From positions 8,808 through 72,807 of the forward strand of contig JBKEDG010000061.1 of the NCBI GenBank assembly GCA_047975285.1: DNA of 64,000 nucleotides. The letters run 5' to 3'. Positions 1-55,645 of the stretch are shown here, piece by piece. The notes beneath the pieces are model-generated. The model was not told where the DNA came from. It did no database searches and saw only the letters and a list, made by a program, of their open reading frames with translations. The position numbers and the translations under genes were made by a program. How positions within the stretch are numbered: the first letter of the stretch is position 1; every line of letters begins with the position of its first letter. Origin of the DNA: Bacilli bacterium (GTDB taxonomy: Bacteria; Bacillota_I; Bacilli_A; JBKEDG01).

Positions 1-903
1 TTTTAATTTGTATGCTTCAAAATCTACATAGTTTACTTCTCCGCATATAATACTAACACACACATTATATATGTTACTTTGATATAGTTCTACTGCATAG
101 TGTCCCATCGCTGTTGCAATACGTCGATCATAAGCAGATGGAACTCCACCACGTTGAATATGCCCTAATGTAACCTTATTAACTTTCATATTTGTATTTT
201 CAGTTATTATATCGCCAAGTAAATTGATATTCATAAAATTCTCACTTAAAATTACAATTGAGTGCGATTTATGTTTGTTCTCAGTCGCTGTTAACATTTT
301 AATAAATTTATTTTTATCAAATCCTGTTTCACAAGTAATCACAACTTCAGCACCACATGCCAATCCAGAACTAAGAGCAATATCACCATTATATCTACCC
401 ATCACTTCAATAACACTTGCTCTTCTGTGTGAAGTAGAAGTATCTCTTATTTTATCAATTGCTTCTACTGCAGTATTAATTGCAGTATCATAACCAATTG
501 TATAATCAGTTCCCAAAATATCATTATCAATTGTTCCTGGTATATTTATAACTTTTACTCCTAATTTTGAAAGTAGCATTCCACCTTGATAACTTCCGTT
601 CCCTCCAATTACAAATAAAACATCTATACCAAGAATTTGTAAATTTTTTGCAGCTATTTTAGCATACCTTTCATCACAAAATTCAGGAAATCGTGCTGAT
701 TTTAAAATAGTACCACCTCTATTAATAATTTCTGCAACGTTTTTTCTAGTTAAACTTCTGATTTTATTATTACATAGCCCATAGAACCCTTCATAAACAC
801 CATATATTTCATACTCATCATGCAAAGCTTTTCGTACAATTGCTCTTAAGCATGCATTCATTCCTGGTGAATCTCCTCCACTAGTTAAAACTGCCATTTT
901 CAT
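1..903 (-). CDS. pfkA: ATP-dependent 6-phosphofructokinase, N-terminal ~301 codons; C-terminus runs off the window edge
   Basis: Minus-strand ATG at 903-901 preceded by AGGAGG; translation MKMAVLTSGGDSPGMNACLRA... carries the PFK GGDSPGMNA signature; frame stays open to position 1 (...GEVNYVDFEAYKLK). Absent from the ORF track because there is no in-window stop. dnaE-pfkA order is conserved in Firmicutes. Confidence 0.85.
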   Translation of the reverse strand, partial: MKMAVLTSGGDSPGMNACLRAIVRKALHDEYEIYGVYEGFYGLCNNKIRSLTRKNVAEIINRGGTILKSARFPEFCDERYAKIAAKNLQILGIDVLFVIGGNGSYQGGMLLSKLGVKVINIPGTIDNDILGTDYTIGYDTAINTAVEAIDKIRDTSTSHRRASVIEVMGRYNGDIALSSGLACGAEVVITCETGFDKNKFIKMLTATENKHKSHSIVILSENFMNINLLGDIITENTNMKVNKVTLGHIQRGGVPSAYDRRIATAMGHYAVELYQSNIYNVCVSIICGEVNYVDFEAYKLK

Positions 904-905
904 AA

Positions 906-3890
906 TTACTCCTCCTTTACTTTAAAATTATTTATAATTAGTTGAAGATTATCATTTCTAACTTCTACTTTACCATCTGCGTATATTAATGTACCAATTT
1001 CCACATTTAAACTATTATAGGCTTTTGGGAATAACACGCATTCAATTGTTCCATACATATCACTGCAATTTAAAAAAGCCATATTTTCACCCCTTTTAGT
1101 TTTAATTTCACGGTAACTTTCTATATATAAAATCATTTTTACATTACGTCTCTCATTACTACTAATATTGAGTGTATTAACTTCTAACAGTTCAGCGTAG
1201 GCGCTAGTTGGATGAGTACTAAAATTAAATCCTAATACCTTTCTTTCATTTAAAACTAACTCACTTTTTTTAAATTCATCTCTAGAAATAAAATACATTT
1301 CATCTGAGAGACCATTTTCTAGATAATCTGGAAACGAATTAACAACATCTATTATACCACTTATTGAATGAATTTGTACACTCTTATAGTTGAAATCAAT
1401 ACTTTCAAACGCACAAGCATAGATTAAATTCTCAATTACATTTTCCCTAATTCCTTTTTTTGCAGTTCTGACAATAAAATCTTTTAAACTTGTGTAATTG
1501 CCAGATTTTCTTTCCTCTACAATTATGTTGCTCAACTTCTCATTTATCCCCTTTACAATAGTTAAGGGTAAAATAACTTCATTTTTTTTCAAACAAAAGT
1601 TGCTCTCACTTCTATTAATATCAATCCCAATCACATTTAAATTATTTCTTCTACATTCATTAATATATTCAAACACCTTATGATTACTAGAAATAGCACT
1701 ATTTAGTAACACACACATAAAATACTTAAAGAAATACGTTTTTAAATATGCAAGTGAAAATCCAATGTGACTGTAACTAACTGAATGAGCTTTATTAAAC
1801 CCATAATCTGCAAATTTTAATATTAAGTTGTATATTTCCTCAACAATATTATAATCATAACCTAATTCAACTGCAGATTTAATAAAATCATCTTTTAAAT
1901 ATAACAGTTTTTCGTAATTCTTTTTAGCCATAGCACTTCTCATTATATCGGCTTTAGCATAAGAAAATCCGGCAATTTTCCTTGCTATCTCCATTATTTG
2001 TTCTTGATATACAATTATCCCATAAGTTTCTTCTAAAATATTTTTCAAATCATCATGAATGTATGAAAATTTCTTTCCATTTCTACGTAATATATATTCA
2101 TCAATATTATCCATAGGTCCTGGTCTATGAAGAGCGTTTGCAACAACTAAATCATTGAAACTATTAGGCTTCAAATTTCTTAATAGTTTCTTCATACCTT
2201 CACTTTCAAACTGAAAAATCCCTAGAGTATTACCTTCACAAAATAATTTAAGCACATTTTTATCGTCTAAATTTATTTTGTTAAAATCAACAACTTCTCC
2301 TTCATTCTCACAAATAATTTCAACTGTCGATTTTAATATTGATAAATTTCTTAATCCTAGAAAATCCATCTTAATTAACCCTATTCTTTCAAGATAATCC
2401 ATACTACTAGAAATTGTAACAACATTCCCATTTTCAATATAACCAATTGTTTGACTTAGATTGTTAGAAGAAATTACAATTCCTGCTGGGTGTACACTTT
2501 CATGCCTTATTAGACCTTCTAATTTTAATGCATATTTGTATATTCTTTCATTATCAACATCAGAATTTACAAGCATTTTAAATTTATCATTTTTTTTATA
2601 ATTATCAATTAATGATAAATTTGAATCTAAATGTTCTGAAAAGTATTTAATGTCTGCGCTGTTTTTACCGAATGCTTTTGCGCAATCTCTTATTACTTGT
2701 TTGCTTTTAAAAGTAACAAAAGTTGCTATTGCTCCAACATTTTCTTCACCATATTTTTTCACAACATGCTTGACAACTTCATCTCTTTTCACATCTTCAA
2801 AATCAACATCAATATCTGGCCATGAAATACGTTCAGGATTCAAAAAACGTTCAAATATTAGGTTGTATTTAAGTGGATCAATATCCGTAATCCCCAGCAC
2901 ATAGGAAACGAGACTTCCAGCCGCACTTCCTCTGCCTGGACCTACAGCAATATTATTATTTTTAGCATACTTAACATAATCGAATACAATTAAAAAGTAG
3001 TCTAAAAAGCCCATATTGTTAATAATAGATAATTCATATTTTAAACGATCAACATATTTATCATCAAAGTTTGGCACTCTAATTGATAAACCTTTTTTAC
3101 ATAAAGAACTAAGATAATCATAACTATCATAATTTGCAGAATAAATTGGAACAGTTTTATCAGAAGGAATTTTTATGTCACACATTGCAATGAGCATTTT
3201 ATTATTTTCAATGTATTCAGCCTTCATTTCATGCTTAAAATCATCAAATTTAAACCCACAGTATTCTATACCACGCTCAGTACGTAGGTATTTCTCTTTA
3301 TTCCTAATTGAACAAAGCAAATTATAATACTTTTGATTATTAATTCCATTGTATCTTATTTCATTTCCATAAAGTTTCTTCAAATTAAACTTCAAGCAAA
3401 ACTCATTTGTTGATGTATTATTGTAATTACTTATAAAAAATATTTCTCCAAAATAATTTTTTAAATTATCAATAAATTCCGTACAATCATTATAACTACA
3501 AAAACTATCATAAACTTTGCTACTTTCATTTAAAATACAAATTAAGTTCCTTGAATTTTTAAATAACGTTTTATATGTTAATTCGTTTTTATTAACTAAT
3601 GTTGTAAGAAAGAAAATGTTTTTTAATCCATCGTAGTTCTTTGCATATAAAATATACGAGTCATTAAGAAAATTTAACTCAACACCAAGAAGTGGTTTAA
3701 GTCTTCCTGCTTTAAAATATAGTTCCGTCAATCCATATGTAGAGTTTTTATCACACAAAGCAACAGCGCTAAAATTATTATCAATTGAAAATTCAATAAT
3801 ATCTTCAATTGATAATAAACTTCTTAAAAAAGTGTAATGACTTTTAATGTTTAAATATGCATATTCCATAAAACCTTCCTTATTAAACAA
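906..3890 (-). CDS. dnaE: DNA polymerase III alpha subunit (DnaE-type); true start may be the internal MEYAYLNIKSHYTF methionine
   Basis: 994 aa; PHP-domain N-terminus (NIKSHYTFLRS...ALCD) and polymerase core motif GPGRGSAAGSLVSYVLGITDIDPL...PDIDVDFE. Confidence 0.9.
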   Translation of the reverse strand: MFNKEGFMEYAYLNIKSHYTFLRSLLSIEDIIEFSIDNNFSAVALCDKNSTYGLTELYFKAGRLKPLLGVELNFLNDSYILYAKNYDGLKNIFFLTTLVNKNELTYKTLFKNSRNLICILNESSKVYDSFCSYNDCTEFIDNLKNYFGEIFFISNYNNTSTNEFCLKFNLKKLYGNEIRYNGINNQKYYNLLCSIRNKEKYLRTERGIEYCGFKFDDFKHEMKAEYIENNKMLIAMCDIKIPSDKTVPIYSANYDSYDYLSSLCKKGLSIRVPNFDDKYVDRLKYELSIINNMGFLDYFLIVFDYVKYAKNNNIAVGPGRGSAAGSLVSYVLGITDIDPLKYNLIFERFLNPERISWPDIDVDFEDVKRDEVVKHVVKKYGEENVGAIATFVTFKSKQVIRDCAKAFGKNSADIKYFSEHLDSNLSLIDNYKKNDKFKMLVNSDVDNERIYKYALKLEGLIRHESVHPAGIVISSNNLSQTIGYIENGNVVTISSSMDYLERIGLIKMDFLGLRNLSILKSTVEIICENEGEVVDFNKINLDDKNVLKLFCEGNTLGIFQFESEGMKKLLRNLKPNSFNDLVVANALHRPGPMDNIDEYILRRNGKKFSYIHDDLKNILEETYGIIVYQEQIMEIARKIAGFSYAKADIMRSAMAKKNYEKLLYLKDDFIKSAVELGYDYNIVEEIYNLILKFADYGFNKAHSVSYSHIGFSLAYLKTYFFKYFMCVLLNSAISSNHKVFEYINECRRNNLNVIGIDINRSESNFCLKKNEVILPLTIVKGINEKLSNIIVEERKSGNYTSLKDFIVRTAKKGIRENVIENLIYACAFESIDFNYKSVQIHSISGIIDVVNSFPDYLENGLSDEMYFISRDEFKKSELVLNERKVLGFNFSTHPTSAYAELLEVNTLNISSNERRNVKMILYIESYREIKTKRGENMAFLNCSDMYGTIECVLFPKAYNSLNVEIGTLIYADGKVEVRNDNLQLIINNFKVKEE

Positions 3891-17648: not shown

Positions 17649-17681
17649 AAAAAAGAACTTTCTATTATAATTAGAAAGTCC
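17649..17681 (-). terminator. intrinsic terminator after the HAL-like gene pair
   Basis: Plus strand aaaaaa-gaactttcta-ttataat-tagaaagtcc; on the minus strand a 9/10-bp stem followed by UUUUUU; 44 nt downstream of the stop at 17725. Confidence 0.6.
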
Positions 17682-17724
17682 TAAACTAATAATATCATTT
17701 AATCATATTTGATTATCGATACAT

Positions 17725-19140
17725 TTAATTAGACATAATATCAAGTAAAGCTTTTGACTTTAAAAAACTACTACTATCATCTTTTATCTTCTTTGTATAT
17801 AAATTATAAACTTGCTTTACATTATCACCTAAAGTATTATCACTTAAGCTTATTAACTTACAAGCAATATTCAATTCATTTTCCATGATGTTAAATAAAT
17901 TTCTCACAATTTTTGTTGTTTTTGTTGCCACATACTGAGTATTATTACCACGATCCTCTATATCACCTGCCACTGCAATAAAATCAAGCGACCCTGGGTT
18001 AGATAAAAATCTAATTTCATTATACAATTTTGAATTCATCATTTCTACTGATTCTAAAACATTAGCTTCTGCTTCTAATTCAATACTGCGATAACAAGAA
18101 AGTTTTGCTACATGATTCAATAATTGTCCCAATTCTTCTAATGCAAGTACCCAATTTATTGTTTCAAAATTACAACATGAAATTATGCGTCTCTCCTCTA
18201 ATAACAAACAAGGATTATCATCGCTAGAGTTTAATTGTATTGTCAATAATTCTTCCAAATTATTTAGAGCATCAATTGCAGCAGCATTAACACTTAACCC
18301 ATTCTTAAAAGCAAACGGAAGATTGGTTTTTGAACTACTCGACAACAACTCCCTATTAGCTAGATGTTTCTTAACATCTGTAGCATAATTGTAAGTACCA
18401 TAATTACCCTGATTAGTTAAAAGCATATCAATTTCCAAATTTGAACAGTTATATCCATCAAAAGAGGTTGCTAAAAGTAAAGAAGAAATTTTAAGTAAAT
18501 CTTTCGCTTCTTTTAACATTAAAGCAGCTAGTCCAGCCCCAAAAGCATTAGAACTAATTATAGCAAGTCCATCTTTAGGTCCAAGATCAACTATTTTCAA
18601 TCCTGATTTATAAATTGCATCTTTTGCAAGCATAACTTCACCATTATAATATACCTCACCTCTTCCAAGCATCGCAAGCCCAATGTGAGGAATATTAGTA
18701 ATATCACCAACCCCAACACTACCACTTCTAGGAATCAAAGGCGAAATTCCTTTGTTAATAAAGTCTACATATGCATCGATGACATCTAAACTTGCTCCAG
18801 TACATCCTGATAAGAATCCTCCCAATCTACACAACATTACCGCTCTAACTTCTATATCATTTAAAACTTCACCTGCACAAACACAGTGTGATAAAACCAT
18901 TTGTGTATTATATTCTTGAAAATATTCTTCAAAAATATCTTGATCTTTATTCCAACCAACCCCAGTATTAAATCCATATATTTGCACACCTTCATCAACT
19001 AAATCAAAAACAAGTTGTCTTGCTTCAACAAGTTTTTGGCGGGTATTTGAATCAATTTCTACTTTAACACTATGATCATGTGCAATTCTTGAAACCAATT
19101 CAATAGTAAGATTTTTCCCATCTAAAGTTACTATACTCAT
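17725..19140 (-). CDS. aromatic-amino-acid-lyase-fold (HAL/PAL family) protein lacking the MIO-forming Ala-Ser-Gly triad; candidate trimethylamine-lyase (ergothionase-like)
   Basis: 471 aa; HAL-like N-terminus (MSIVTLDGKNLTIELVSRI..., IYGFNTGVG); at the MIO position reads RSGSVG-VGDITNIPHIGLAMLGRGE versus HAL [23 protein letters not shown] (Ala deleted, Ser->Val); AGGAGGTG RBS; 1-nt gap after upstream paralogue. Confidence 0.7.
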   Translation of the reverse strand: MSIVTLDGKNLTIELVSRIAHDHSVKVEIDSNTRQKLVEARQLVFDLVDEGVQIYGFNTGVGWNKDQDIFEEYFQEYNTQMVLSHCVCAGEVLNDIEVRAVMLCRLGGFLSGCTGASLDVIDAYVDFINKGISPLIPRSGSVGVGDITNIPHIGLAMLGRGEVYYNGEVMLAKDAIYKSGLKIVDLGPKDGLAIISSNAFGAGLAALMLKEAKDLLKISSLLLATSFDGYNCSNLEIDMLLTNQGNYGTYNYATDVKKHLANRELLSSSSKTNLPFAFKNGLSVNAAAIDALNNLEELLTIQLNSSDDNPCLLLEERRIISCCNFETINWVLALEELGQLLNHVAKLSCYRSIELEAEANVLESVEMMNSKLYNEIRFLSNPGSLDFIAVAGDIEDRGNNTQYVATKTTKIVRNLFNIMENELNIACKLISLSDNTLGDNVKQVYNLYTKKIKDDSSSFLKSKALLDIMSN

Positions 19141-19141
19141 C

Positions 19142-20548
19142 TTAACACACCTCCTTTATTAATATCTTTGATTTCACTAAACTATACATTTTTTCTATAT
19201 CACTTGTTAAATTACGATCAGCATCATAAAATGGTAGTACATCTCTAACTTTATCATAAACTATACTTGTTCTTTCTCCTAATTTAATATTGTCTCTTAA
19301 ATCAATTGCCTGACAAGAACACATTAGCTCAACTCCAAATACATACGCTAATTTTTCTAAAATTTCATTAACTTTCATAGTAACTTGTCTCGAATTGCAA
19401 TCATAGTCATCATATTTTGATTTATACGAGAAAAAATCAGAATTTGAAGGGTTAGCCAGGTGACGAATTTCAGCATCAAGTCCTGAAACACAGTTTGGTA
19501 CAATTGCAAATGCGTGTACTTCATTATCTGGTGAAAGATATCTATTTAAACCTGTAAATCTAGTATCAGACAATTTTATGGTTCTAAAAACACTTGATTT
19601 AGACATATGAGAAAAAATTTGACCTAGCATTTCAACATTTATTGTCCAAGCTATTGAATCATTAGTAGTACTATAATAACCATCCTTATCAATAATTATA
19701 TGAGGAACATAATTTAATCCCATACATACTTTTTTTTCTAAATTATTTAGAATATGTCTTGCTGATCCATGAATATGCGTAATGTCACGATAACTTAGTG
19801 GATCTTGCAAAGCGATTTTTTCGCTAGTGTAAATATAACTACCTTTTAAAATATTATTCATGTTTTTTGCAACCACTAAATTTTCTTCAAATGGACGATG
19901 TTTATAAATTGATTCATCAAGTGGTGTAACATTACCATTTAACCCTTCTAAAGATATAGCTGATATTAAATCTATTGTCTCTAAAAAATCTTTTGAGTTT
20001 TTTACTAAAATACTTACAAGTGCAATATCAAAAACACTTGAATTTTGAATACTGTAAGTATCAATAGAATCAAGTTCCAATATTTGCAGCCTTGATTTTC
20101 TAAAAGCCTCTTTTGCGTCAACAATATCATTTTCATAATTAACTTTACCTACCCCATTCATCGCAAGACACAATGCACATAAATTGTCATGATTACTTTT
20201 ATTCTCGTCTAATACTGGAGTTATTTTATAATTAATCATATTCTCTAAAATTTCAACAGTTTTTCGCGAAATACCTACATTACTATTTATAAGTGAATTA
20301 AGTAATACGACCATAACACTTCTTACATCTAGAGTAGAAATTTTTTTGGAACTCCAATCAAGTTCCACATAACTAGCACCATAATCTTTCATAACTTTGC
20401 TTACATCAAACTTTTTTAGAAATTCTTTTCTTTTTTTCTCTAATCTAATGAATACATTTTCATCAACCTCTAATATAGCTTGATTATTAGCAATTAAATT
20501 CAAATCGTCTACATTTAACATTGTACCATCTAAAATAATTTTCTTCAT
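19142..20548 (-). CDS. second, more divergent HAL/PAL-fold paralogue, also without the Ala-Ser-Gly triad
   Basis: 468 aa; HAL-like N-terminus (MKKIILDGTMLNVDDLNLIANNQAILEV), QDPLSYR and ANPSNSD motifs retained; MIO region reads ENKSNHDNLCALCLAMNGVGKV (no ASG); AGGAGG RBS. Confidence 0.6.
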   Translation of the reverse strand: MKKIILDGTMLNVDDLNLIANNQAILEVDENVFIRLEKKRKEFLKKFDVSKVMKDYGASYVELDWSSKKISTLDVRSVMVVLLNSLINSNVGISRKTVEILENMINYKITPVLDENKSNHDNLCALCLAMNGVGKVNYENDIVDAKEAFRKSRLQILELDSIDTYSIQNSSVFDIALVSILVKNSKDFLETIDLISAISLEGLNGNVTPLDESIYKHRPFEENLVVAKNMNNILKGSYIYTSEKIALQDPLSYRDITHIHGSARHILNNLEKKVCMGLNYVPHIIIDKDGYYSTTNDSIAWTINVEMLGQIFSHMSKSSVFRTIKLSDTRFTGLNRYLSPDNEVHAFAIVPNCVSGLDAEIRHLANPSNSDFFSYKSKYDDYDCNSRQVTMKVNEILEKLAYVFGVELMCSCQAIDLRDNIKLGERTSIVYDKVRDVLPFYDADRNLTSDIEKMYSLVKSKILIKEVC

Positions 20549-20718
20549 AATAACCTCCTACTTTATATACTATACTATTATTATACATCATATATCTCTA
20601 AATTTTGCTTGTTTTGGAAACTATATTGAAATATTGACAGATATTTTTGATAAAGTATAGATAAATACCCTATTTTATGGTAAATTTGTATTATAATATA
20701 TATAAGGGGGGATTTTTT

Positions 20719-22329
20719 ATGAAGAGGATTAATAAAATTGTGTTCGTCCCATCAATAATAATTCTTGGTGGTGCCGCAATACTTGGACTTGTAGACGGTG
20801 AAAGGTTTGGCGAAATAAGTCATGGTGCATTTAGTTTTATCTTATCTAGTTTTGGATGGTTATTTCAAATTGCAGTTATGGCATCAGTATTTGTAGTGCT
20901 ATTTCTTTTTATTTCAAAGGGTAAAATTAGGTTTGGAGGTAAAAATGCTAAACCTAAATTTAGTTTCATGTCTTGGTTTGCCATGTCTCTTACAGGAGGT
21001 ATTGCAACAGGACTAGTTCTTTATGGTGTAAACGAGCCAATTGTTTATGTTGGTAATGTATATGGAGAGATGTCTCATTACGGTATTGCAACAGGAACAA
21101 CTGAAAGTGCAATTTTTGCAATGGGAAGAGTATTCTATAACTGGACATTTCTACCATACGCTACTTACGCACTAGCAGGTGCACTAATGGCTTACCTTTA
21201 TTTTAATAAAGGAACAAAGCTTGCTGTGTCTGAAACACTTAGACCAATTGTTGGTAAACTTGCAGATAATAATTATTTTAACTCTATTGTAAATACTTTA
21301 TCACTTTTGGCAATTGCCTTAGGTCTTGCATCTTCACTTGGTGGTGGACTTACATTTGTAGGTAGTGCTATAGAATTCAAGTATGGAATTTCACAAGGAT
21401 ATGTTCTTTGGGGAGTTATCGCTGCTGTAATTACAATAATCTTTACCTTTGCATCTTACAAAGGTGTAGAAAAAGGAATTAAGATTTTGGCTGATTTTAA
21501 TACAAGAATGTACTTTTTAATTTTACTTATTTTATTTATTGTTGGTCCAACAATTTATATGTTATCACTTTCTTCAACTGGAATGGGTTATTGGCTTGAT
21601 AATTTCTTCTCATGGGGACTTGATTCTGGAAACGTATTTAGTGCAAAAGAAATGACTGCAGGACTAGATGCATCACTTGGTGGAGACGCACTTGTTCAGT
21701 GGTGGACACTATATGACTGGGCTATGTGGATAGCATATGCACCTTTGATGTCAATATTCTTAGCAATGATTGCGTATGGAAGAACAATTAGAGAGTTTTT
21801 AATTGTTAACTGGATTTTACCAGCTACATTTGGAGTAGTATGGTTCACTATCTGGGGAGCAACTGCTATATACTGGCAAAATACAGGCGAAGTTGATTTA
21901 GTAAGTGTTATTAACGAAGGTGGTGCTCTTGCTGCTATGTGGGCATTTGTTGATAATATAAACATTGCAGGATTCAACATTGGAATGATTATTATCCCAA
22001 TAATGATTATTTGCTTAATTGTTTCATTTGCTACTGCTGCCGATGCAATGACTACATCAATTGCCACACTTTGTTCAAAAGATTTAAAGCAAGGTGAAGA
22101 ACCTTCAAGTTTCTTAAAGATTATTTGGGGTGTTATCATCGGAGCTATAGCATTTGTACTAGTTGCAAGCGTTGGTGGTGATCAAGGAGTTGATGGTGTA
22201 AAATATATGGCTGCTGTTGGTGGAGGATTTGTATTAATCATTTTCCTTGTACAAATAATCTCAGCAATCAAAACATTTTTTATGGAAGAATTAACCGAAC
22301 CAGAAGAACCATTAATGCATAATGAGTAA
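20719..22329 (+). CDS. BCCT-family (betaine/carnitine/choline-type) quaternary-amine transporter; start taken at MKRINK (ATG 20719)
   Basis: 12 TM; BCCT signature segment WTLYDWAMWIAYAPLMSIFLAMIAYGRTIREF (compare [32 protein letters not shown]); strong RBS AAGGGGGG 8 nt before the ATG; the track's longer form adds an improbable 14-aa leader. Confidence 0.85.
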   Translation: MKRINKIVFVPSIIILGGAAILGLVDGERFGEISHGAFSFILSSFGWLFQIAVMASVFVVLFLFISKGKIRFGGKNAKPKFSFMSWFAMSLTGGIATGLVLYGVNEPIVYVGNVYGEMSHYGIATGTTESAIFAMGRVFYNWTFLPYATYALAGALMAYLYFNKGTKLAVSETLRPIVGKLADNNYFNSIVNTLSLLAIALGLASSLGGGLTFVGSAIEFKYGISQGYVLWGVIAAVITIIFTFASYKGVEKGIKILADFNTRMYFLILLILFIVGPTIYMLSLSSTGMGYWLDNFFSWGLDSGNVFSAKEMTAGLDASLGGDALVQWWTLYDWAMWIAYAPLMSIFLAMIAYGRTIREFLIVNWILPATFGVVWFTIWGATAIYWQNTGEVDLVSVINEGGALAAMWAFVDNINIAGFNIGMIIIPIMIICLIVSFATAADAMTTSIATLCSKDLKQGEEPSSFLKIIWGVIIGAIAFVLVASVGGDQGVDGVKYMAAVGGGFVLIIFLVQIISAIKTFFMEELTEPEEPLMHNE

Positions 22330-22573
22330 TAAACAAGGTGTTACAATTGACTATAAAAAGTTGTTACTATCTAAACCAGATGGACTATTTGAATTATTTG
22401 CACTTGTATTTTTAATTGCATGCACTTTTGCGTTTTATTTTGCACCACTTACATTTAGCAAAATAGAACCAACAAAAGCAATTATGATGTCAATAGTACC
22501 AGCTTTTATTAGCGGATGGGGACTTTTTACGCTCGTTAGATTAGTAAGATACAAAAAAAAATATACTAAATAA
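22322..22573 (+). CDS. small two-TM membrane protein; ATG overlaps the BCCT stop (ATGAGTAA)
   Basis: 83 aa; two hydrophobic helices (LFELFALVFLIACTFAFYFAPL / IMMSIVPAFISGWGLFTLVRLV), basic C-terminus; no obvious SD; start-stop overlap is compatible with translational coupling. Confidence 0.35.
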   Translation: MSNKQGVTIDYKKLLLSKPDGLFELFALVFLIACTFAFYFAPLTFSKIEPTKAIMMSIVPAFISGWGLFTLVRLVRYKKKYTK

Positions 22574-22734: not shown

Positions 22735-22774
22735 AACACTTCATAGCTATTTACAGAGCTATGAAGTGTTTTTA
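22735..22774 (+). terminator. perfect 14-bp stem / 8-nt loop hairpin plus T-run in the leader of the APC permease (terminator or attenuator)
   Basis: aacacttcatagct (22735-22748) - atttacag - agctatgaagtgtt (22757-22770) then ttttta; arms are exact reverse complements; lies after a TTGATC-16-TATAAT promoter-like element (22694-22721) and 20 nt before the RBS TAGGAGG. Confidence 0.6.
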
Positions 22775-22792: not shown

Positions 22793-24139
22793 ATGAAAGA
22801 AAACAAAGCAGGTTTGCCACTTGCAGTATCTATGGTTATAGGTATTGTAGTTGGGTCAGGAATATTTTTTAAAAGTGATGATGTTTTATCTAAAGTCAAC
22901 GGTAATTTTTCCCTAGCTATAATTGCTTGGATTATAGGTGCAGTTGCTATGATTTTTGGAGCATTAGTAATTGGAACTTATGCAAGCAAGATAAGTCACG
23001 CAAATGGAATAATTGATTACTATGAATATACATTTGGAAAAAAGAATAAAAAATTAGGCGAATTATTTGGGTATATGATTGGTTCTTATAGCGCAATACT
23101 ATTTTATCCTGCATTAGCAGCAGTCATTAGTTGGGTTGCGGGAATGTACACCACTAGCCTATTCTATAATGGTGATGTATCTAATCACAAATTAACGTGG
23201 ATACTAGCCACTTCATATCTTTTAATCATTTTTTTAATCGCCACATTATCAAAACTACTTAGCGAATATATACAAGTATCTTCCACTATTTTAAAACTAG
23301 TACCAATTACTATTATAGTAATATTTGGAATAATTATAGGTTTTGATAATATTGATAACTTCTCAGCATCAATTAGTAAAAATAGTTCATATAGTTTTTC
23401 ATTTACTGGAGCAGTTATTGCAACTGCATTCTCTTTTGATGGATGGATTATCGCTACTACAATAAATGATCGTCTTAAACATCCAAAGAAAGATTTACCC
23501 CGTGCATTATTAATTGGTACAATATTAATTTTCGCTATGTACATTCTTTATTTTATTGGAATAACTTCAATAGTAGGTGTGCATTCAATTATTAATATAA
23601 AAGATAATGCTGTAGCACTAGCTTTTACTAATATACTAGGAAAAAGTGGTTCTACACTGATACTCATCTTCATAATAATATCTTGTCTAGGCACTGTAAA
23701 TGGATTAATTATTGCAACATCCAGGATATATTATCAGCTTGCAATACGTGGGCACGGTCTATTTCCACACTTAATAAGTAAAATTAATCCTCACACTAAA
23801 ACGCCAGTAATTTCATCACTTATTGGCTTTATAATTTCTCTATTTATGTTATTTGTTTGGTATAGTAATTATAATCCAAATATATTAATAAATAAATTTG
23901 TTGATATAAGTTCATTACCAATTGTATTAAATTATATCTCATTTTCAGTTTTATATATAGCTGCGATGTTCCAATTTAAAGACTTGTCATTAACAAGAAG
24001 ATTTGTATTTCCAATCCTAGCATTATTAGGTGCTAGCATAATTATTTACGGCGGATTTTTAGACGAGTCAATATTTTTATACCTAATAATATCTTTTATA
24101 ATTATATTAACAACGTTGATTTTTTTCAAAAAGACTTAG
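22793..24139 (+). CDS. APC-superfamily amino-acid permease
   Basis: 448 aa, about 12 TM; N-terminal GLPLAVSMVIGIVVGSGIFFKSDDV is the typical APC/AAT helix-1 Gly-rich motif; TAGGAGG RBS. Confidence 0.75.
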   Translation: MKENKAGLPLAVSMVIGIVVGSGIFFKSDDVLSKVNGNFSLAIIAWIIGAVAMIFGALVIGTYASKISHANGIIDYYEYTFGKKNKKLGELFGYMIGSYSAILFYPALAAVISWVAGMYTTSLFYNGDVSNHKLTWILATSYLLIIFLIATLSKLLSEYIQVSSTILKLVPITIIVIFGIIIGFDNIDNFSASISKNSSYSFSFTGAVIATAFSFDGWIIATTINDRLKHPKKDLPRALLIGTILIFAMYILYFIGITSIVGVHSIINIKDNAVALAFTNILGKSGSTLILIFIIISCLGTVNGLIIATSRIYYQLAIRGHGLFPHLISKINPHTKTPVISSLIGFIISLFMLFVWYSNYNPNILINKFVDISSLPIVLNYISFSVLYIAAMFQFKDLSLTRRFVFPILALLGASIIIYGGFLDESIFLYLIISFIIILTTLIFFKKT

Positions 24140-33727: not shown

Positions 33728-34942
33728 ATGCAAAAAAAATTTGAAGTCGTTTTACTAGGAAGTGATATGAATGTATATGGCATGGCAAGATCACTACATG
33801 AACAATACGGTATTATATCTCATTCTATTGGTAAAATGGAACTTGATTATATAAAATACAGTAAAATATTAAAGCACAATATTATACCTGACTTAGAAGA
33901 TGATTCTACTTTCGCTAATTATTTACTTGAATTTCATAAAAAATTAGACACAGATAAAGTTATTCTAGTCGCATGTGGTGATACATATGTTGATAAAATA
34001 ATTACTAATAAAAAAGATTTATCTGAAAAATATATTGTACCTTATATTGACCAAGATTTATCACTACGATTACAAAATAAAAAATCATTCTATAAAATAT
34101 GTGACCAATATGGTTTGAAATATCCAAAAACTCAGATAGTAAACGCTGAAAATTATCAAAACTTTACCCTTGAATTATCCTACCCAATTGTACTAAAACC
34201 CGCTAATACTGTAATGTACTGGCTTACGACTATTAAAGAAAGAAAAAAGGCGTACTTGGTTCATGACAACAAACAATTAGATCACATACTTTATAATATT
34301 TACTCTTCTGATTATAATGATGATTTTATCTTACAGGAATATCTTGATGGCGATGATTCAAGTATTGCTGTTGTTAATTGCTATTCAACGAGTGATGGAG
34401 AAGTTGTTATGCAAACATTTGGCAACGTTTTATTGGAAGATCACGCTCCTAATGGAATTGGTAGTCATATGGCAATAATAAGTAGTACTGAGCCTGAATT
34501 ATTAAAACAAATTAAATTATTTTTAGAAGATATAAATTATATTGGATTTTCTAACTTCGACTTGAAGTATGACTTTAGAGATAATACTTATAAATTTTTT
34601 GAAATTAATTTAAGGCAAGGTAGAAGTAGCTATTATGTAACTAATGCTGGATGTAATTTAGGAAAGTATCTTGTTGAGGAGTATATATTTAATAATACTT
34701 TAACCTATGAAACAGGAAAACCTAATAAACTATGGTCTGTAATACCAAAGTCAATTATTATGAAATATGTGAAGAATCGAGAGATGAAGTCAAAGTTTTT
34801 AAAAATATATAATGAATCTAAATATTGTAACTCATTAATATATGCTAAAGACTTATCTTTTAAAAGGTTGTTAATGCAGACTAAAAATTTTCATTTACAA
34901 AAACTAAGATATTTGAAACATTTTAGCGACAAGGAGTTATAA
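33728..34942 (+). CDS. ATP-grasp carboxylate-amine ligase (candidate D-aspartate ligase of the Asl type)
   Basis: 404 aa; pre-ATP-grasp plus ATP-grasp architecture (VVLLGSDMNVYGMARSL ... YPIVLKPAN ... ILQEYLDGDD ... FSNFDLKYDFRDNTYKFFEINLRQGRSSYY); TAGGAGG RBS; followed immediately by a racemase and an AsnB-type amidotransferase. Confidence 0.6.
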   Translation: MQKKFEVVLLGSDMNVYGMARSLHEQYGIISHSIGKMELDYIKYSKILKHNIIPDLEDDSTFANYLLEFHKKLDTDKVILVACGDTYVDKIITNKKDLSEKYIVPYIDQDLSLRLQNKKSFYKICDQYGLKYPKTQIVNAENYQNFTLELSYPIVLKPANTVMYWLTTIKERKKAYLVHDNKQLDHILYNIYSSDYNDDFILQEYLDGDDSSIAVVNCYSTSDGEVVMQTFGNVLLEDHAPNGIGSHMAIISSTEPELLKQIKLFLEDINYIGFSNFDLKYDFRDNTYKFFEINLRQGRSSYYVTNAGCNLGKYLVEEYIFNNTLTYETGKPNKLWSVIPKSIIMKYVKNREMKSKFLKIYNESKYCNSLIYAKDLSFKRLLMQTKNFHLQKLRYLKHFSDKEL

Positions 34943-35611
34943 ATGAAACTAGGAATTATTGGTGGACTTGGACCGCTAGCAGGATATGATTTTGGAAGAC
35001 GTTTAACAAAAGCATCAAAAGTAAAAAGTGATCAAGAGCATATTGAAACAATATTATTAAGCGATACAAAAGTGCCTGATCGTACTGATTATATCCTAAA
35101 AAAAAGTTGTTGTAGTCCCTTACCAAAATTAAAAAATGATGTAGCTATATTAAACCAGTTAAAGGTTGATTATATTGCTATAATATGTAATACTGCTCAT
35201 TATTTTTATGAAGAACTTGCAAAAAATTCAAATGCAGTTATTTATAATATGATAGAAATTGCAATTTCAAAGTATTTTAACAAAAAAATCGGACTAATTT
35301 CAACCAAAGGAACACGCGATAGTAAAATATATGAAATTTATGCTAATAAATACAATGTTGAATTAATTACACTTGATGATTATCATCAACAAATTGCAAC
35401 AGAAATAATATATTCTCAAGTTAAAAAAAACTTGCCTATTTGTGAAAAAGATTTTAGAACAATATGTGACTATCTATTTTCAAAAGGATGTGTAAAAATT
35501 ATTCTTGGTTGCACTGAACTTTCAACTGCTAAGGCAGAATTCTTATTAAGTGAATTATATATTGACCCTGTTGAAAAATTGATAATAAAAATAATAGGTG
35601 ACTTTTACTAA
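34943..35611 (+). CDS. Asp/Glu/hydantoin-family racemase, aspartate-racemase-like
   Basis: 222 aa; two catalytic Cys contexts ICNTAHYF and LGCTELS typical of aspartate racemases (RacD type); ATG directly abuts the ATP-grasp stop. Confidence 0.7.
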   Translation: MKLGIIGGLGPLAGYDFGRRLTKASKVKSDQEHIETILLSDTKVPDRTDYILKKSCCSPLPKLKNDVAILNQLKVDYIAIICNTAHYFYEELAKNSNAVIYNMIEIAISKYFNKKIGLISTKGTRDSKIYEIYANKYNVELITLDDYHQQIATEIIYSQVKKNLPICEKDFRTICDYLFSKGCVKIILGCTELSTAKAEFLLSELYIDPVEKLIIKIIGDFY

Positions 35612-39843: not shown

Positions 39844-40060
39844 TTGTGATCACACTATCTGGACACATAATAGCACAGTTAGAACATCCAATACATTTTT
39901 CTGGTTCCACTATTTCTGCAGGATTATAACCTTTTACATTAACCGTACTTTTGTCAAGTGCTAAAATGTTAACTGGACAAGCCACAATACATAACTCACA
40001 CCCTTTACATTTCTCAATTTCAAAAAACAATTTTCCTTTTGCCATACTTTCTCCTCTCAA
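39818..40060 (-). CDS. 2-oxoacid:ferredoxin oxidoreductase delta subunit (2x[4Fe-4S] ferredoxin)
   Basis: 80 aa; two CxxCxxCxxxCP motifs (CKGCELCIVACP / CIGCSNCAIMCP). Confidence 0.85.
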   Translation of the reverse strand: MRGESMAKGKLFFEIEKCKGCELCIVACPVNILALDKSTVNVKGYNPAEIVEPEKCIGCSNCAIMCPDSVITIERGEKNG

Positions 40061-40722
40061 TTTTTATCTTTTTCTAATAAAAATTCAAAAACTTCTATCC
40101 TCTTACCTTCAAGACCATTACATTGTAATTTACTATCAAGTAAGTAATATTCAATATTGAGATCATACTTAGAATTTAAAACAATTTGTTGTGCACGTAT
40201 CATATCATCACAATTTGAATATTGCATTAGATGACTATTGTTGACAATACCAGTTATTTGGAGTTTACTATAGTTATTAATGTATCCAATTTTGCTATTG
40301 AAACTCTCTACATCCATATTTCCTTCACGATTAGCATTGATTACATAAAGAAAATTGTAAACCCCATTATTTCTATCAACTAAATCTTCTAAAAATGATG
40401 GTATCATTCTTAATCCCACTTCACTTCCAGCAAGATCTAAGATTAAATGATTATTTTCATCATTAATTGCATTATAAAAATTAGGAGCAAAATGTGGTAC
40501 ATCTGTATTAGCATTTGATCCTAATATGTTACCAAGCAATTCAATTCCATAATCATTAAGCGTTTTCTCTCTTTCTCTAGATCTAAAATATACATTTACT
40601 ACATCTAAATCAGCAACGTAAATTTTTTTATCTGTATTCTTACTCAAATATAAAGCATACTGCAACGTAAACTCACTCTTACCACTTCCGTATAAGCCAG
40701 TTATAATTGTAATTTGGGCCAT
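40057..40722 (-). CDS. uncharacterised P-loop NTPase (Walker A GLYGSGKS, DxxG-type Walker B LILDLAGSE), first gene of the OFOR operon
   Basis: 221 aa; MAQITIITGLYGSGKSEFTLQYALYL ... HLILDLAGSEVG; stop overlaps the delta subunit start; own terminator-bounded transcription unit start upstream. Confidence 0.55.
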   Translation of the reverse strand: MAQITIITGLYGSGKSEFTLQYALYLSKNTDKKIYVADLDVVNVYFRSREREKTLNDYGIELLGNILGSNANTDVPHFAPNFYNAINDENNHLILDLAGSEVGLRMIPSFLEDLVDRNNGVYNFLYVINANREGNMDVESFNSKIGYINNYSKLQITGIVNNSHLMQYSNCDDMIRAQQIVLNSKYDLNIEYYLLDSKLQCNGLEGKRIEVFEFLLEKDKN

Positions 40723-47945: not shown

Positions 47946-48869
47946 TTAATTCCTACTTATATAGTTATATTCATCTAAACTAATTTGCAACTTATATATT
48001 TCATTACTTTTTTCACCAACATACCTAAAATGTCCCCGTTCTTCATACTTAAAAATTGCAGAATATTCTTTCTTGAAACGCAAAATAAAACCATATTTAC
48101 TACCTATTTTTTCTATTGTACTATCATGCTCTTCTTTATAATCTAAATCAATTGCTAGTCCTGTTGCATGTTCATCGTACAAATCACCTTTATCTAAAGT
48201 CTTAACAATTGTGTATTTTATATTAAAACTATCAAGTTCATCAAAAAATTTTTCTAGGTCATTGCACATTTTATTATTGTATACGCTGAATCCATAACAA
48301 TAAGTCCAATTTCTGTTAGCACTATTTAACTTATTATATTTATTAACAATACTAAGTTCATTAACTTCATAAATAGTATTATAGTTATCATATGCACTTA
48401 AATCATAATCTAAATTTACATTTAAAATAGCATCTTCTCCTTTATAATCTAAATACCTTTCTGTCCTTGATTCTATAAAATACTCATCGCCAAATAATTT
48501 CCTAAATTTTCTATTATTGGATTTATTTATTAATTTGTAATCAAATTCTATTTCAACCATCTTTATTATGTCATCTATACTATAATATTTAGTTAAATGA
48601 TTAATTTTATCTAAATTCACATCACAATTTCTAATTTTTTTATAGATGCCAATGTTATTTACATCAAAATCGTCTTTTAATATATTACAATCAATATATT
48701 CATAATATCGATCTAATTCTATCTCTAACTCTTGAATCTTTTGATATGAATTATTATTGTATTTATATAAATTTTCTTCGATAACAAAGTCATTTGCTGG
48801 ATTATAATTCATATAAATCACAAAAATTATAAATATTGAAATAATAAAAAAAGGAATATACGTTTTCAT
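47946..48869 (-). CDS. membrane-anchored M15B (VanY-like) D-Ala-D-Ala carboxypeptidase family protein
   Basis: 307 aa; N-terminal TM; catalytic motifs EHATGLAIDL (SxHxxGxAxD-like) and EERGHFRY (EPWHxRYVG-like) in the C-terminal ~110 aa. Confidence 0.6.
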   Translation of the reverse strand: MKTYIPFFIISIFIIFVIYMNYNPANDFVIEENLYKYNNNSYQKIQELEIELDRYYEYIDCNILKDDFDVNNIGIYKKIRNCDVNLDKINHLTKYYSIDDIIKMVEIEFDYKLINKSNNRKFRKLFGDEYFIESRTERYLDYKGEDAILNVNLDYDLSAYDNYNTIYEVNELSIVNKYNKLNSANRNWTYCYGFSVYNNKMCNDLEKFFDELDSFNIKYTIVKTLDKGDLYDEHATGLAIDLDYKEEHDSTIEKIGSKYGFILRFKKEYSAIFKYEERGHFRYVGEKSNEIYKLQISLDEYNYISRN

Positions 48870-52819: not shown

Positions 52820-53461
52820 TTATAAATAACTATTTACCTTTTCTTGATACACATTTAAAAATTCTGTTGACTCTTTAGAAATCTCTAAACATTTTGATTT
52901 ATAATAACTTACTAAATCTACATCACTTAACCCCGGCAAATTAATTTTTACATTTAAAATAGCCCCTTCAATTCCTGCCGATAAAAGCAATGCAGCAACA
53001 CCAACATCTGTAATAGCATTTTTATTTCCAAATTCAATAATGCTTGTCAATAGTTTAAGTGCTTTCAAACTTTCTGTAGCAATCTCATAAGGAACCTTAA
53101 TTATTTCTTTTGTAGCTTCTTCCATTTGTTCAAGACGAAATTGCTTTTCCTCTTCACTATCTTTTGGTAATTTTAATGCTTTCATGAAAATTCCAAATGA
53201 TCTTGTATCTTCATCAACTAAAAACTCAAGACTATCTTGGTGCGCTTTTAACTTAGAAAATGACTCACTAAATAAATCCTTATCTTTTTCATCAAGAGCT
53301 TCATACTTCTTCTTACCAAAAGTTAAATGCCCCACCATTCTAGCAAGTGCACAACCAACAGCTGCAGCAACACTACTAACACTACCACCACCTGGAGCTG
53401 GTGAATCAGAATCAACTTCCTTCACAAATTCTTTTACTGTCAAATCAATTAAATTACCCAC
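52820..53461 (-). CDS. formiminotetrahydrofolate cyclodeaminase / methenyl-THF cyclohydrolase-family protein (FTCD C-domain); start re-assigned to a GTG at 53461
   Basis: SPAPGGGSVSSVAAAVGCAL motif about 20 residues from the N-terminus, as in cyclodeaminases; GTG overlaps the hutI stop (GTGGGTAA) and has GGAGGA 7 nt upstream; the track's longer ORF (to 53563, TTG start) would overlap hutI by about 110 nt. Confidence 0.7.
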   Translation of the reverse strand: MGNLIDLTVKEFVKEVDSDSPAPGGGSVSSVAAAVGCALARMVGHLTFGKKKYEALDEKDKDLFSESFSKLKAHQDSLEFLVDEDTRSFGIFMKALKLPKDSEEEKQFRLEQMEEATKEIIKVPYEIATESLKALKLLTSIIEFGNKNAITDVGVAALLLSAGIEGAILNVKINLPGLSDVDLVSYYKSKCLEISKESTEFLNVYQEKVNSYL

Positions 53462-54743: not shown

Positions 54744-55636
54744 TATAATAAACTATTCTCCAAAACCATATCCATATTAAACCCTTCAACTTTCAAGTAG
54801 AAACTTGCACAATCAGTAAGTGCCTCCATTGGAAGTGAGCCAATAATCTCGCTACCAATTACATTAACACCATACCTAGCAGCTTCAAATTTAACTGTTT
54901 CAAAAACTCTATATATACTTGTTTTTCTATAATCAAGGATATTCATAGAAACTTGTACAATTCCACGCTCTGTTAGTTCCATTGGTCCAGCTTGTACAAA
55001 ACGAAACCCACCACTACTAAATCTAATTGCCTTAGAAATCGATGCTGCAATATCTACATTATCTGTATCTAAATTAATATTAAAAGCAATAAGTGGAACA
55101 CGAGCACCCACAGCAGTACATCCAGCGGTCGGATGTTTTTTTGCGTTCCCATAGTCAGGAGCCCAATTTTCTTCTTTAATTTTATCATCAAATCCTTCAA
55201 ATTCACCTTTTCTTATTGTTGGTAATTTAATACGATCTGGTTTATTAGCCGCTTCTGCATACATATAAATAGGTAAATCATACTTGCTTGCCAATTCTTT
55301 TCCAAGTTCATTTGCAACTTCAACACACTCTTCCATTGTAATATTTTTAAGTGGAATAAATGGAATAACATCTGTTGCCCCCATTCTCTTATGTTCTCCT
55401 GAATGGTTATTTAAGTCGATTAGTTCTGTAGTTTTTCCAACTAAGTCAATTAACGCACTCTTAATTGCATCAATATCTCCAAGTAAAGTTACAACTGTTC
55501 TGTTGTGATCTGGATCTGGCAAATAACTTACTAGTTTAAAACCTTTACGGTCCTTTAATACACTTACAATTTTTTCAACTTTATCTAAATCCCTACCTTC
55601 TGAAAAGTTAGGTACACATTGAACTATTCTATTCAT
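54743..55636 (-). CDS. ftcD: glutamate formimidoyltransferase (formiminotransferase domain only)
   Basis: 297 aa; MNRIVQCVPNFSEGRD N-terminus is the hallmark of the FTCD transferase domain. Confidence 0.85.
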   Translation of the reverse strand: MNRIVQCVPNFSEGRDLDKVEKIVSVLKDRKGFKLVSYLPDPDHNRTVVTLLGDIDAIKSALIDLVGKTTELIDLNNHSGEHKRMGATDVIPFIPLKNITMEECVEVANELGKELASKYDLPIYMYAEAANKPDRIKLPTIRKGEFEGFDDKIKEENWAPDYGNAKKHPTAGCTAVGARVPLIAFNINLDTDNVDIAASISKAIRFSSGGFRFVQAGPMELTERGIVQVSMNILDYRKTSIYRVFETVKFEAARYGVNVIGSEIIGSLPMEALTDCASFYLKVEGFNMDMVLENSLL

Positions 55637-55645
55637 AATCTCTCC

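Follow-up and report, generated by a model that had tools for sequence, protein, structure and literature searches.

The lyase pair and its surroundings

The subject of this analysis is a pair of tandem lyase genes in a 64-kb window (the whole stretch of 64,000 nucleotides that was analysed, from contig JBKEDG010000061.1 of the Bacilli bacterium assembly GCA_047975285.1). The two proteins, here denoted subunit B (upstream gene, a "B-type" paralogue) and subunit A (downstream gene, an "A-type" paralogue), share the fold of histidine ammonia-lyase (HAL) and have lost complementary parts of the active site, suggesting that they function together, probably as an obligate heteromer. The window comes from the chromosome of an anaerobic Firmicute and has a low GC content (~30%), and the surroundings of the pair are of the housekeeping kind (dnaE, pnp, tkt, lexA, glmS, glmM, cdaA/cdaR, fab genes, PFOR, mutL, and ftsK).

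An earlier, sequence-only reading of this DNA described two co-oriented minus-strand genes with 1-nt spacing, each preceded by an AGGAGG ribosome-binding site (RBS), and a terminator belonging to this operon. The open reading frames (ORFs) lie exactly where that reading placed them, both AGGAGG motifs were located, and an intrinsic-terminator-like hairpin with a T-run closes the B-A operon (Table 1). The stop codon of B (TAA) is followed by a single nucleotide and then by the ATG of A. The ammonia-lyase landmarks listed in the same reading are also real, but they are not common to both proteins as it had assumed: IYGFNTGVG and GSVG..D are found only in A (471 aa), and QDPLSYR and ANPSNSD only in B (468 aa). 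The "protein 1" of that reading is the downstream gene, i.e., A, and the gene naming is corrected here.

The divergent region between B and the BCCT carrier gene on the opposite strand presumably holds promoters for both directions. Alignment and inverted-repeat scans of these 170 bp yielded no convincing conserved operator, no regulator gene adjoins the lyase/BCCT module in the window, and no Rfam element was matched across the whole 64 kb.

Table 1. Coordinates and strands of the features in the window that are discussed in the text.
Feature	Coordinates	Strand	Remarks
Intrinsic-terminator-like hairpin with T-run	17654-17682	-	closes the B-A operon
Lyase subunit A	17725-19140	-	471 aa, downstream gene, A-type
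AGGAGG RBS of A	19150-19155	-	within the last codons of B
Lyase subunit B	19142-20548	-	468 aa, upstream gene, B-type
AGGAGG RBS of B	20554-20559	-	
Divergent intergenic region B/BCCT	20549-20718		170 bp, AT-rich
BCCT-family carrier	20719-22329	+	536 aa, PF02028
Two-transmembrane protein	22322-22573	+	83 aa, start overlaps BCCT stop (22322 vs 22329)
Strong terminator-like hairpin	22735-22770	+	14 pairs, closes the BCCT/83-aa operon
APC permease gene	22793-24139		beyond the 22735-22770 terminator
ORF without Pfam match	33728-34942	+	404 aa
Asp/Glu/hydantoin racemase gene	34943-35611		
ORF without Pfam match	40057-40722	-	221 aa
ORF without Pfam match	47946-48869	-	307 aa
Hut operon without hutH	52820-59326	-	
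Cyclodeaminase-like gene	52820-53563	-	in Hut operon
hutI	53454-54743	-	in Hut operon
Glutamate formimidoyltransferase	54743-55636	-	in Hut operon
Formate-tetrahydrofolate ligase	55646-57304	-	in Hut operon
hutU	57305-59326	-	in Hut operon

Elsewhere in the window, three predicted proteins have no Pfam match; the gene for the 404-aa one precedes a racemase gene and an asparagine synthase gene.

Assignment to the MIO-less branch of the HAL fold

Both lyases match PF00221 (E = 1e-89 and 9e-60). The best solved relative of A and B is the ergothionase of Treponema denticola (6s7j; E = 1.5e-84 and 1.5e-66), and the next PDB match is a HAL (E = 1e-40 and 1e-30). With the NCBIfam hutH models (TIGR01225/NF006871), A and B score 219.5 and 168 bits, far below the cut-off of 539, and they are also below the cut-offs of every other named enzyme that depends on 4-methylideneimidazole-5-one (MIO). 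At the MIO position, the alignment has GSVGVGDITN in A and NKS----NHDN in B. The Ala-Ser-Gly triad is absent from A, from B and from all 112 family members examined, all of which show GS[VI]G[EQ..][AG]D at this position. AlphaFold2 (AF2) models of the two chains are confident (pLDDT of 88.9 for A and 86.8 for B); the low-confidence parts of the B model (residues 57-59 and 374-380) are limited to former active-site loops, and its closest fold match in a Foldseek search is again 6s7j (TM-score 0.88).

The sequence-only reading had noted the missing triad and inferred an ergothionase-like rather than HutH-like affiliation, and the comparison with characterised ergothionases and HutH agrees with it on both counts, given that no intact triad was found in either protein and that the top homologues are not HutH. 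Judging by sequence similarity, A and B are members of the MIO-less ergothionase/trimethylammonia-lyase branch of PF00221 and not of HutH.

Reciprocal loss of active-site parts in A and B

Two sets of segments have opposite fates in the two chains. We refer to the segments that build a subunit's own catalytic centre as the own-centre pole, and to those that complete the site of a neighbour as the neighbour-completing pole. Subunit A keeps the former, namely IYGFNTGVGWNKD, which carries the catalytic Tyr and Lys, SHC with the His, the MIO-less loop GSVGVGDITN, GPKDGLAIISSNAF (family stretch GPKDGLAI..SSNAF), NSSDDNPC/CNFE, and GDIEDRGNN with the Glu. Its neighbour-completing pole is eroded: in the clamp motif QDPLSxR, the Gln-Asp pair is deleted and the Arg is replaced by Lys, the 12-aa FTGLPRFL lid loop is deleted, the helix with the Lys384 column is lost (Lys384 is replaced by Met), CQAIDLR has become CKLISL, and 12 aa near the C-terminus are missing. 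Subunit B keeps the neighbour-completing pole: its carboxylate clamp (Gln/Arg, in QDPLSYR), its lid loop (FTGLNRYL), the helix of the Lys384 column, where it has Asn, CQAIDLR, and the C-terminal DR..DI. Its losses fall in the own-centre pole and comprise the Tyr-loop region (YGFNTGVGWNKD, retained in A), the His helix (SH), the GSVG..DIT loop, GPKDGLAI, and NSSDDNP, with IEDH changed to YDDY.

The catalytic set, with the Tyr (Tyr54 of the T. denticola enzyme), the Gln/Arg carboxylate clamp and the Glu (Glu412), is complete in neither chain. Subunit A has the Tyr, Lys, His and Glu and is devoid of the Gln-Asp, with Lys for Arg. In B, the Gln and Arg are present, but the Tyr loop and the His are gone and the Glu is replaced by Asp; the full set of catalytic residues exists only across A and B together.

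The complementarity was quantified along the chain. When the loss profile is defined as the fraction of ortholog-invariant residues lost per 25-residue window, the profiles of A and B anticorrelate (Pearson r = -0.87, p = 1e-6). Six full-length orthologs share 190 invariant positions; double losses in A and B affect only 6 of these, compared with 19.9 expected (Fisher p = 8e-7; as few double losses occur in 1.6% of circular shifts). In the own-centre segments (26-225, 301-350 and 401-425 in the numbering of the full-length ortholog P0002), A is 74-84% identical to its own orthologs and B only 34-36%, with 30 residues deleted, against 78-79% among the full-length orthologs. In the neighbour-completing segments (226-300, 351-400 and 426-498), the respective values are 40-42% for A, with 31 residues deleted, 70-77% for B, and 73-80% for the full-length orthologs. 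The kept and lost segments interleave along the chain, and the identity between A and B of the window is 25%, compared with ~50% between the paralogues elsewhere.

Two candidate explanations of details were examined and set aside. Gene conversion from another paralogue, or a chimeric origin, does not fit the eroded segments, which are still closest to their own paralogue type. The Arg at position 414 of the A-type proteins was considered as a compensating residue; this position varies across the family.

The sequence-only reading had offered two specificities, or a competent enzyme with a degenerate partner, alongside a heteromer. Through the complementary losses the heteromer becomes the key point of the locus, and the other two options do not fare well. 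In particular, two separate homotetramers with different specificities (e.g., for ergothioneine and hercynine), each active alone, would be plausible for relatives in which both paralogues are full-length: in L001, L002, L004 and L087, described below, each protein of the pair carries all known catalytic motifs, and the two differ at the Lys384 column, with Lys in the A-type and Asn in the B-type protein. For the window pair, we regard this explanation as very unlikely, given that A is devoid of the clamp Gln-Asp, the lid loop and Lys384, that B has lost two loops (the Tyr loop and GSVG..D) as well as the DDNP motif, the His and the Glu, and that neither an anticorrelation of r = -0.87 nor a recurrence with swapped roles in another lineage is what one would expect of independent losses.

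Full-length pairs and a role-swapped replicate

Proteins of 498 aa are the closest relatives of both subunits: P0002-4 for A (58-64% identity), and P0044, P0040 and P0066 for B (49-52% identity). Full-length B-then-A tandems (498 + 498 aa) were found on contigs from other samples in four lineages (L001, L002/3, L004-6 and L087), and every family motif is present in each of these paralogues, which are ~50% identical to each other. The layout of the junction, with 1-nt spacing and the RBS of A inside B, is conserved across these four lineages, including L001, L002 and L004. Altogether, the tandem lyase pair recurs in at least 5 other metagenomic lineages. In L087, which encodes a BCCT carrier 81% identical to that of the window, the complete window architecture is present, including the 83-aa ORF, but the lyases are of 498 + 498 aa.

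A second eroded pair was found in L088 (BCCT 67% identical to the window's), in which the tandem lyases (599-3068, minus strand) are 458 and 368 aa long. The operon of this pair also contains Mo-hydroxylase genes and is divergent from the BCCT gene and a 92-aa ORF. Here it is the upstream, B-type protein that keeps the own-centre segments (66-67% identity to B orthologs); its neighbour-completing segments are lost (23%, 48 positions gapped). The downstream, A-type protein keeps the neighbour-completing segments (60-61% identity to A orthologs, with QDPLSFR, FTKLPRFL and Lys384) and has lost the own-centre ones, with 129 gapped positions. The segment boundaries are those of the window pair and the roles of the paralogues are swapped. 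In agreement with this, the loss profile of A correlates with that of the upstream L088 protein (+0.84) and the profile of B with that of the downstream one (+0.78), and the correlation inside the L088 pair is -0.87. Because L087, with its full-length lyases, is nearer to the window than L088 is, the erosions in the window and in L088 are independent.

Eroded segments could also have gained a new role, for example as an allosteric or regulatory ligand site, or as a surface on which the BCCT carrier or the 83-aa protein docks. That these segments are still open, predicted to fold, and 34-42% identical to their orthologs indicates that some constraint is left on them. Nevertheless, a single sequence does not allow a new conserved motif to be defined, and the equivalent regions of the L088 proteins are largely deleted (129 and 48 gapped positions), which favours loss; a new role thus seems quite unlikely.

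No close relatives of the eroded pair were detected in JGI metagenomes searched with B alone or with a B-type alignment, or among GTDB species representatives (best match 45%), and a library of representatives at 50% identity contained nothing above 38% identity to B. Other short homologues were considered as degenerate partners and rejected: most of them are apparently fragments at contig ends, and P0184 stands alone, is short at the N-terminus and has no lyase gene upstream. A stand-alone 439-aa member in L092 (136-1455) begins after the Tyr-loop region and has no upstream lyase; it does not belong to a tandem and may be either a truncated copy or a gene with a mis-called start. A third MIO-less paralogue of 508-512 aa lies beside the BCCT gene in L001 (6689-8227, minus strand) and L002 (5141-6667, plus strand); it keeps Lys384, has HDPLSYR and MEDK variants, and has no counterpart in the window.

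Selection on both genes

Given the shortness and divergence of both proteins, decay has to be weighed, i.e., that the two genes are relics (unitary pseudogenes that remain open by chance) in a streamlined genome and that no enzyme is encoded. Both proteins fall ~30 residues short of their orthologs and are missing conserved motifs, the 25% identity between A and B is half that of paralogues elsewhere, and the eroded pair was found in only one metagenome-assembled genome (MAG), to which the protein accessions MFV0499259/60 belong. Several observations oppose this explanation. The kept segments (70-84% identical to orthologs) are as conserved as the full-length orthologs are among each other. 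The approximately one dozen indel events in the pair are all in frame, and there are no stop codons; in a simulation of neutral drift of orthologous DNA to the observed divergence (1000 runs each), the eroded segments were stop-free in 0/1000. Even these segments retain 34-42% identity to their own orthologs, are nearer to their own paralogue type than to the other, and are predicted by AF2 to retain the helical scaffold. The RBSs and the terminator are intact, and complementary loss would not be predicted by random decay. We therefore consider decay highly improbable: from the conservation of the kept segments, the drift simulation, the intact RBSs and terminator, and the confident predicted folds, it appears that both lyase genes are under selection and are not pseudogenes.

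Structural logic of the two poles

In tetramers of the HAL fold there are four active sites, and three monomers contribute to each of them; in the phenylalanine ammonia-lyase (PAL) AvPAL, the chains are antiparallel, such that residues distant from their own site approach that of a neighbour (bioRxiv 10.1101/2021.06.06.447205). The residues assigned to the own site in AvPAL are 83-94, 102, 218, 222, 360 and 446-455, and those assigned to the neighbour's site are 268, 294, 306, 308-315 (including Tyr314), 397-403, 400, 407, 494 and 533-534 (bioRxiv 10.1101/2021.06.06.447205). Once renumbered, all own-site markers map to segments kept in A and lost in B, and all neighbour-site markers to segments kept in B and lost in A. 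The renumbering relied on motif anchors of the family (the Tyr loop, MIO, Asn, Phe, the Y/R clamp, and the Gln/Glu position), with offsets between about -23 and -40. In the literature searched, no statement was found that assigns Lys384 or Glu412 of ergothionase or HAL to a particular chain; other papers mention three monomers per site or carry no chain labels, and usable chain assignments are given only in the AvPAL preprint.

By analogy with AvPAL, each site would consist of one subunit's own pole (the Tyr loop, His, former MIO loop, Asn and Glu) and the distal pole of antiparallel neighbours, from which the lid loop, the carboxylate clamp (Gln/Arg) and parts of the C-terminus would come. 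Such a two-pole, composite site predicts that erosion with swapped roles would respect the same segment boundaries, as is the case in L088. In the window, A would contribute only the own-centre pole and B only the neighbour-completing pole. The tetramer would then comprise two parallel A chains and two antiparallel B chains, A2B2 being the simplest arrangement. At one end, the A centres would be completed by the clamps and lid loops of B, giving two live composite sites, and at the other end, the eroded centres of B would face the eroded distal parts of A, giving two dead sites.

The BCCT transporter module

The BCCT carrier, which the sequence-only reading had placed 170 bp away and divergent from the lyases, matches PF02028 over residues 22-533 (E = 1.7e-104). 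The mechanical ORF starts at 20677; the ATG at 20719 follows AAGGGGGG at 20704-20711 and gives a 536-aa protein that is identical to the deposited sequence and matches its relatives, so that this ATG is almost certainly the real start and the divergent spacer is 170 bp long. The carrier scores below every named NCBIfam cut-off (betaine, 288/650; carnitine antiporter, 189/541; BetT, 176/695). The 83-aa ORF with two transmembrane (TM) segments that overlaps the BCCT stop is likewise present as described. The APC permease behind them, which that reading had also listed, is a genuine gene but an unlikely member of the unit, given the terminator in front of it and its absence from related loci.

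Across species-representative genomes that encode a lyase of this family, a BCCT gene is located within 10 kb of the lyase in 60 of 80, usually in the adjacent position. From the side of the carrier, all five sampled relatives (81-53% identity) adjoin a PF00221 lyase. The proposed tie between BCCT and MIO-less lyases is thus borne out, and this genomic association indicates that the carrier is functionally linked to the lyases and that uptake-plus-lyase pairing is common rather than rare. It follows that the combination is less unfamiliar than the sequence-only reading had held, the lyase-BCCT pairing being widespread and the tandem pair recurring in other lineages. The carrier is presumed to import the trimethylammonium substrate; the literature search found no paper characterising a lyase-linked BCCT carrier of this kind.

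Small two-TM proteins of 80-92 aa are also encoded in L087 (4886-5137), L088 (8398-8676), L089 (11607-11849), L093 (8145-8387) and L094 (8160-8420). They share the pattern YKK[IL]L..KP.G.FE ... W..F.L.RL.RY, have no Pfam or NCBIfam match, and always occur with this BCCT subfamily and a MIO-less lyase, their genes either overlapping the BCCT stop or directly following the lyase. The small protein is a conserved third member of the module across several lineages and may be an accessory subunit of the carrier.

Two further observations pertain to loci with this BCCT subfamily. In L093 (3017-4663) and L094 (3059-4726), both Clostridium-like contigs, a sigma-54-dependent activator is encoded directly upstream of the BCCT/lyase/small-ORF operon. 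A second MIO-less clade, closest to true HALs (best PDB matches 7tqr and 1b8f), is present in L089 (8339-9892, minus strand), L093 (6588-8141) and L094 (6607-8157), with further copies in L009, L013, L021, L028, L045, L053, L056, L069, L081 and L082. Its motifs are MYG[IV]TTGFG, GSVGYL.PEAH and QDALSLR, with Tyr at the Lys384 column. This clade adjoins the same BCCT subfamily, sometimes together with an ergothionase-type gene, and is probably another trimethylammonia-lyase.

The likely substrate and the Hut pathway

In T. denticola ergothionase, Lys384 binds the thiolate and is essential for activity, whereas the histidine-betaine lyase of S. woodyi (Swoo_3913) has Asn, and the N(pi)-methyl histidine-betaine lyase of S. 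oneidensis has Gln, at the same column (bioRxiv 10.1101/2025.08.13.670108; 10.64898/2026.04.22.720169). Lys occupies this column in 99% of the outgroup members and Asn in all B-type proteins. The window pair has Met in A and Asn in B, that is, no Lys whichever chain supplies the residue. The Asn is shared by B and its B-type orthologs with Swoo_3913, which was compared by its published description; a match of the other catalytic residues requires A and B together. The helix of the Lys384 column stays, in each of the two eroded pairs, with the subunit that keeps the neighbour-completing parts, from which we infer that the neighbour chain supplies this residue. If so, the live sites of the window enzyme would contain Asn (hercynine-type) and those of L088 Lys (ergothioneine-type).

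Further evidence on the substrate comes from the Hut operon. HutU scores 419 against the urocanase (hutU) cut-off of 375 and fails that of thiourocanate hydratase (290 vs 930); together with HutI (435 vs 298) and FtcD (416 vs 221), it represents the canonical Hut pathway. As the sequence-only reading had pointed out, this operon has no hutH of its own, and no hutH or any other HAL-fold gene was found within the 64-kb window besides A and B. The Hut operon is accordingly proposed as the sink for urocanate produced by the lyase. Taking together the absence of Lys384, the Asn in B, the canonical HutU, and the lack of hutH in the window, the sequences favour, with moderate confidence, histidine betaine (hercynine) as a likelier substrate than ergothioneine.

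The same heteromer could nonetheless act on ergothioneine, which the sequence-only reading had put forward beside hercynine, or on another 2-substituted or N-methylated histidine betaine. The characterised family members are mostly ergothionases, the Arg next to the catalytic Glu of A-type subunits might bind an anionic substituent, and the Gln of the S. oneidensis enzyme shows that a residue other than Lys is no proof of hercynine. Against this stand the lack of the reportedly essential Lys384 in both subunits, the match of the Asn to a characterised histidine-betaine lyase, the canonical urocanase with no thiourocanate hydratase signature in the window, and the absence from the vicinity of the pair of the Mo-hydroxylase genes that are linked to it in L001, L002 and L088. 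On balance, such a substrate is a minority option that deserves some weight.

Two observations on related proteins may be recorded here. P0146-P0154 (e.g., one named from Oscillibacter sp.) are full-length, apparently single-gene members with Asn at the Lys384 column which, together with the B-type proteins, suggest a wider hercynine-type subgroup within the ergothionase family. The recurrent three-gene Mo hydroxylase set (Fer2, FAD_binding_5 and Ald_Xan_dh_C/MoCoBD; L001 893-4428, L002 1471-5009, L088 3072-6620), linked to the lyase pair and BCCT, may have thiourocanate or a related imidazole acid as its substrate, in a so far undescribed anaerobic route.

A proposed heteromeric trimethylammonia-lyase

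We propose that A and B form an obligate A2B2 MIO-less trimethylammonia-lyase that likely acts on hercynine. The BCCT carrier and its 83-aa partner would import the substrate, the lyase would release trimethylamine and urocanate, and HutU, HutI and FtcD would convert the urocanate to glutamate. We put the probability of this explanation as a whole at about 0.65. Family membership, the absence of MIO, the reciprocal loss, its recurrence and the gene linkage are read directly from the sequences; the formation of the heteromer, the identity of the live end, the substrate and the direction of transport would follow from them less directly.

Several points weigh against this proposal. Under an alternative alignment, B may retain a remnant of the Tyr ("DYGASY"). 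The Lys of A at the position of the clamp Arg suggests that the distal pole of A may be not fully dead, and the A-type proteins have Arg instead of the usual His after Glu412-Asp, in a position that is variable in the family. The assignment of segments to chains derives from text on a distant homologue, AvPAL, and from motif-derived offsets, and that of the Lys384 helix from the observation that in two loci it is kept or lost along with the neighbour-completing segments. For the eroded pair of the window there is one MAG contig, of which Logan provides an independent assembly, and for the L088 replicate one Logan contig. Finally, hutH might be present elsewhere in the genome, the search having covered the 64-kb window, and the Hut operon lies 35 kb from the lyase pair.

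A broader possibility, which we advance tentatively and at somewhat less than even odds, is that the B-A pair is an obligate heterotetramer in all lineages that carry it, with two chemically different ends, of which individual lineages have pruned one each. The end built from the own centre of A and the distal pole of B (Asn384) would be hercynine-type, and that built from the own centre of B and the distal pole of A (Lys384) would be ergothioneine-type; the organism of the window would have retained the Asn384 end and L088 the Lys384 end. If this is the case, the family would provide a replicated natural case of subfunctionalisation of single active sites of an oligomer, not of whole genes.

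Implications and comparison with known systems

If the A2B2 proposal is correct, the window enzyme would be the first heteromeric member of the HAL/PAL/ergothionase fold found in our literature search, and an unusually clean natural case of a duplicated homo-oligomer with shared sites becoming locked into an obligate heteromer, an outcome that would have arisen twice with opposite polarity. Checks of catalytic residues in individual proteins would call A and B inactive, or mislabel them as histidine ammonia-lyases, and surveys of gut or environmental trimethylamine producers that use single ergothionase-like genes would misjudge such loci. The locus also provides two leads: the possible import of histidine betaines by a BCCT subfamily that has a small conserved membrane partner, and a possible hercynine route into the ordinary Hut pathway in an anaerobic Firmicute without hutH in the 64 kb examined.

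Heteromers of related and unrelated enzymes offer partial parallels. The heterotetramers of plant PAL consist of fully active isoforms. In argininosuccinate lyase/delta-crystallin, intragenic complementation allows differently defective chains to rebuild some intact cross-subunit sites, and the deoxyhypusine synthase of trypanosomatids is a heteromer of impaired paralogues with shared active sites. The latter two enzymes differ from the window pair in fold and reaction, and the argininosuccinate lyase effect occurs between mutant alleles, not fixed paralogues. For the HAL/PAL fold, the literature search found homomeric descriptions only, and no active site split between tandem paralogues.

HutH shares with the window pair the fold and the kinds of residues (Tyr, His, Asn, Gln/Arg and Glu), and its urocanate product enters the same Hut pathway, but it requires the Ala-Ser-Gly-derived MIO, which is absent here. 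The Shewanella lyases (Swoo_3913 and SO_3299) are likewise MIO-less and have an uncharged residue in place of Lys384 (Swoo_3913 shares its Asn with the B-type proteins), and their urocanate product is used by the cell (bioRxiv 10.1101/2025.08.13.670108; 10.64898/2026.04.22.720169). Each of them is encoded by one gene, works in the periplasm and serves respiration through coupling to flavocytochrome urocanate reductases, whereas the window lyases start at the conserved N-terminal hairpin with no visible leader, are paired with an importer, and would feed the cytoplasmic Hut pathway. The closest known counterparts, the ergothionases of T. denticola (PDB 6s7j and 6s7q) and Burkholderia sp. HME13, have the same fold and MIO-less loop as A and B and the same kind of chemistry, in which trimethylamine leaves by 1,2-elimination under acid/base catalysis, with a Tyr as the base. 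They are, however, described as encoded by single genes and as possessing four equivalent sites, with all catalytic residues, including Lys384, in each chain, whereas in the window pair these are split and Lys384 is missing. The chemistry and the family are known; what appears to be new at this locus, judging by the literature searched, is that the parts of one active site are divided between tandem paralogues.

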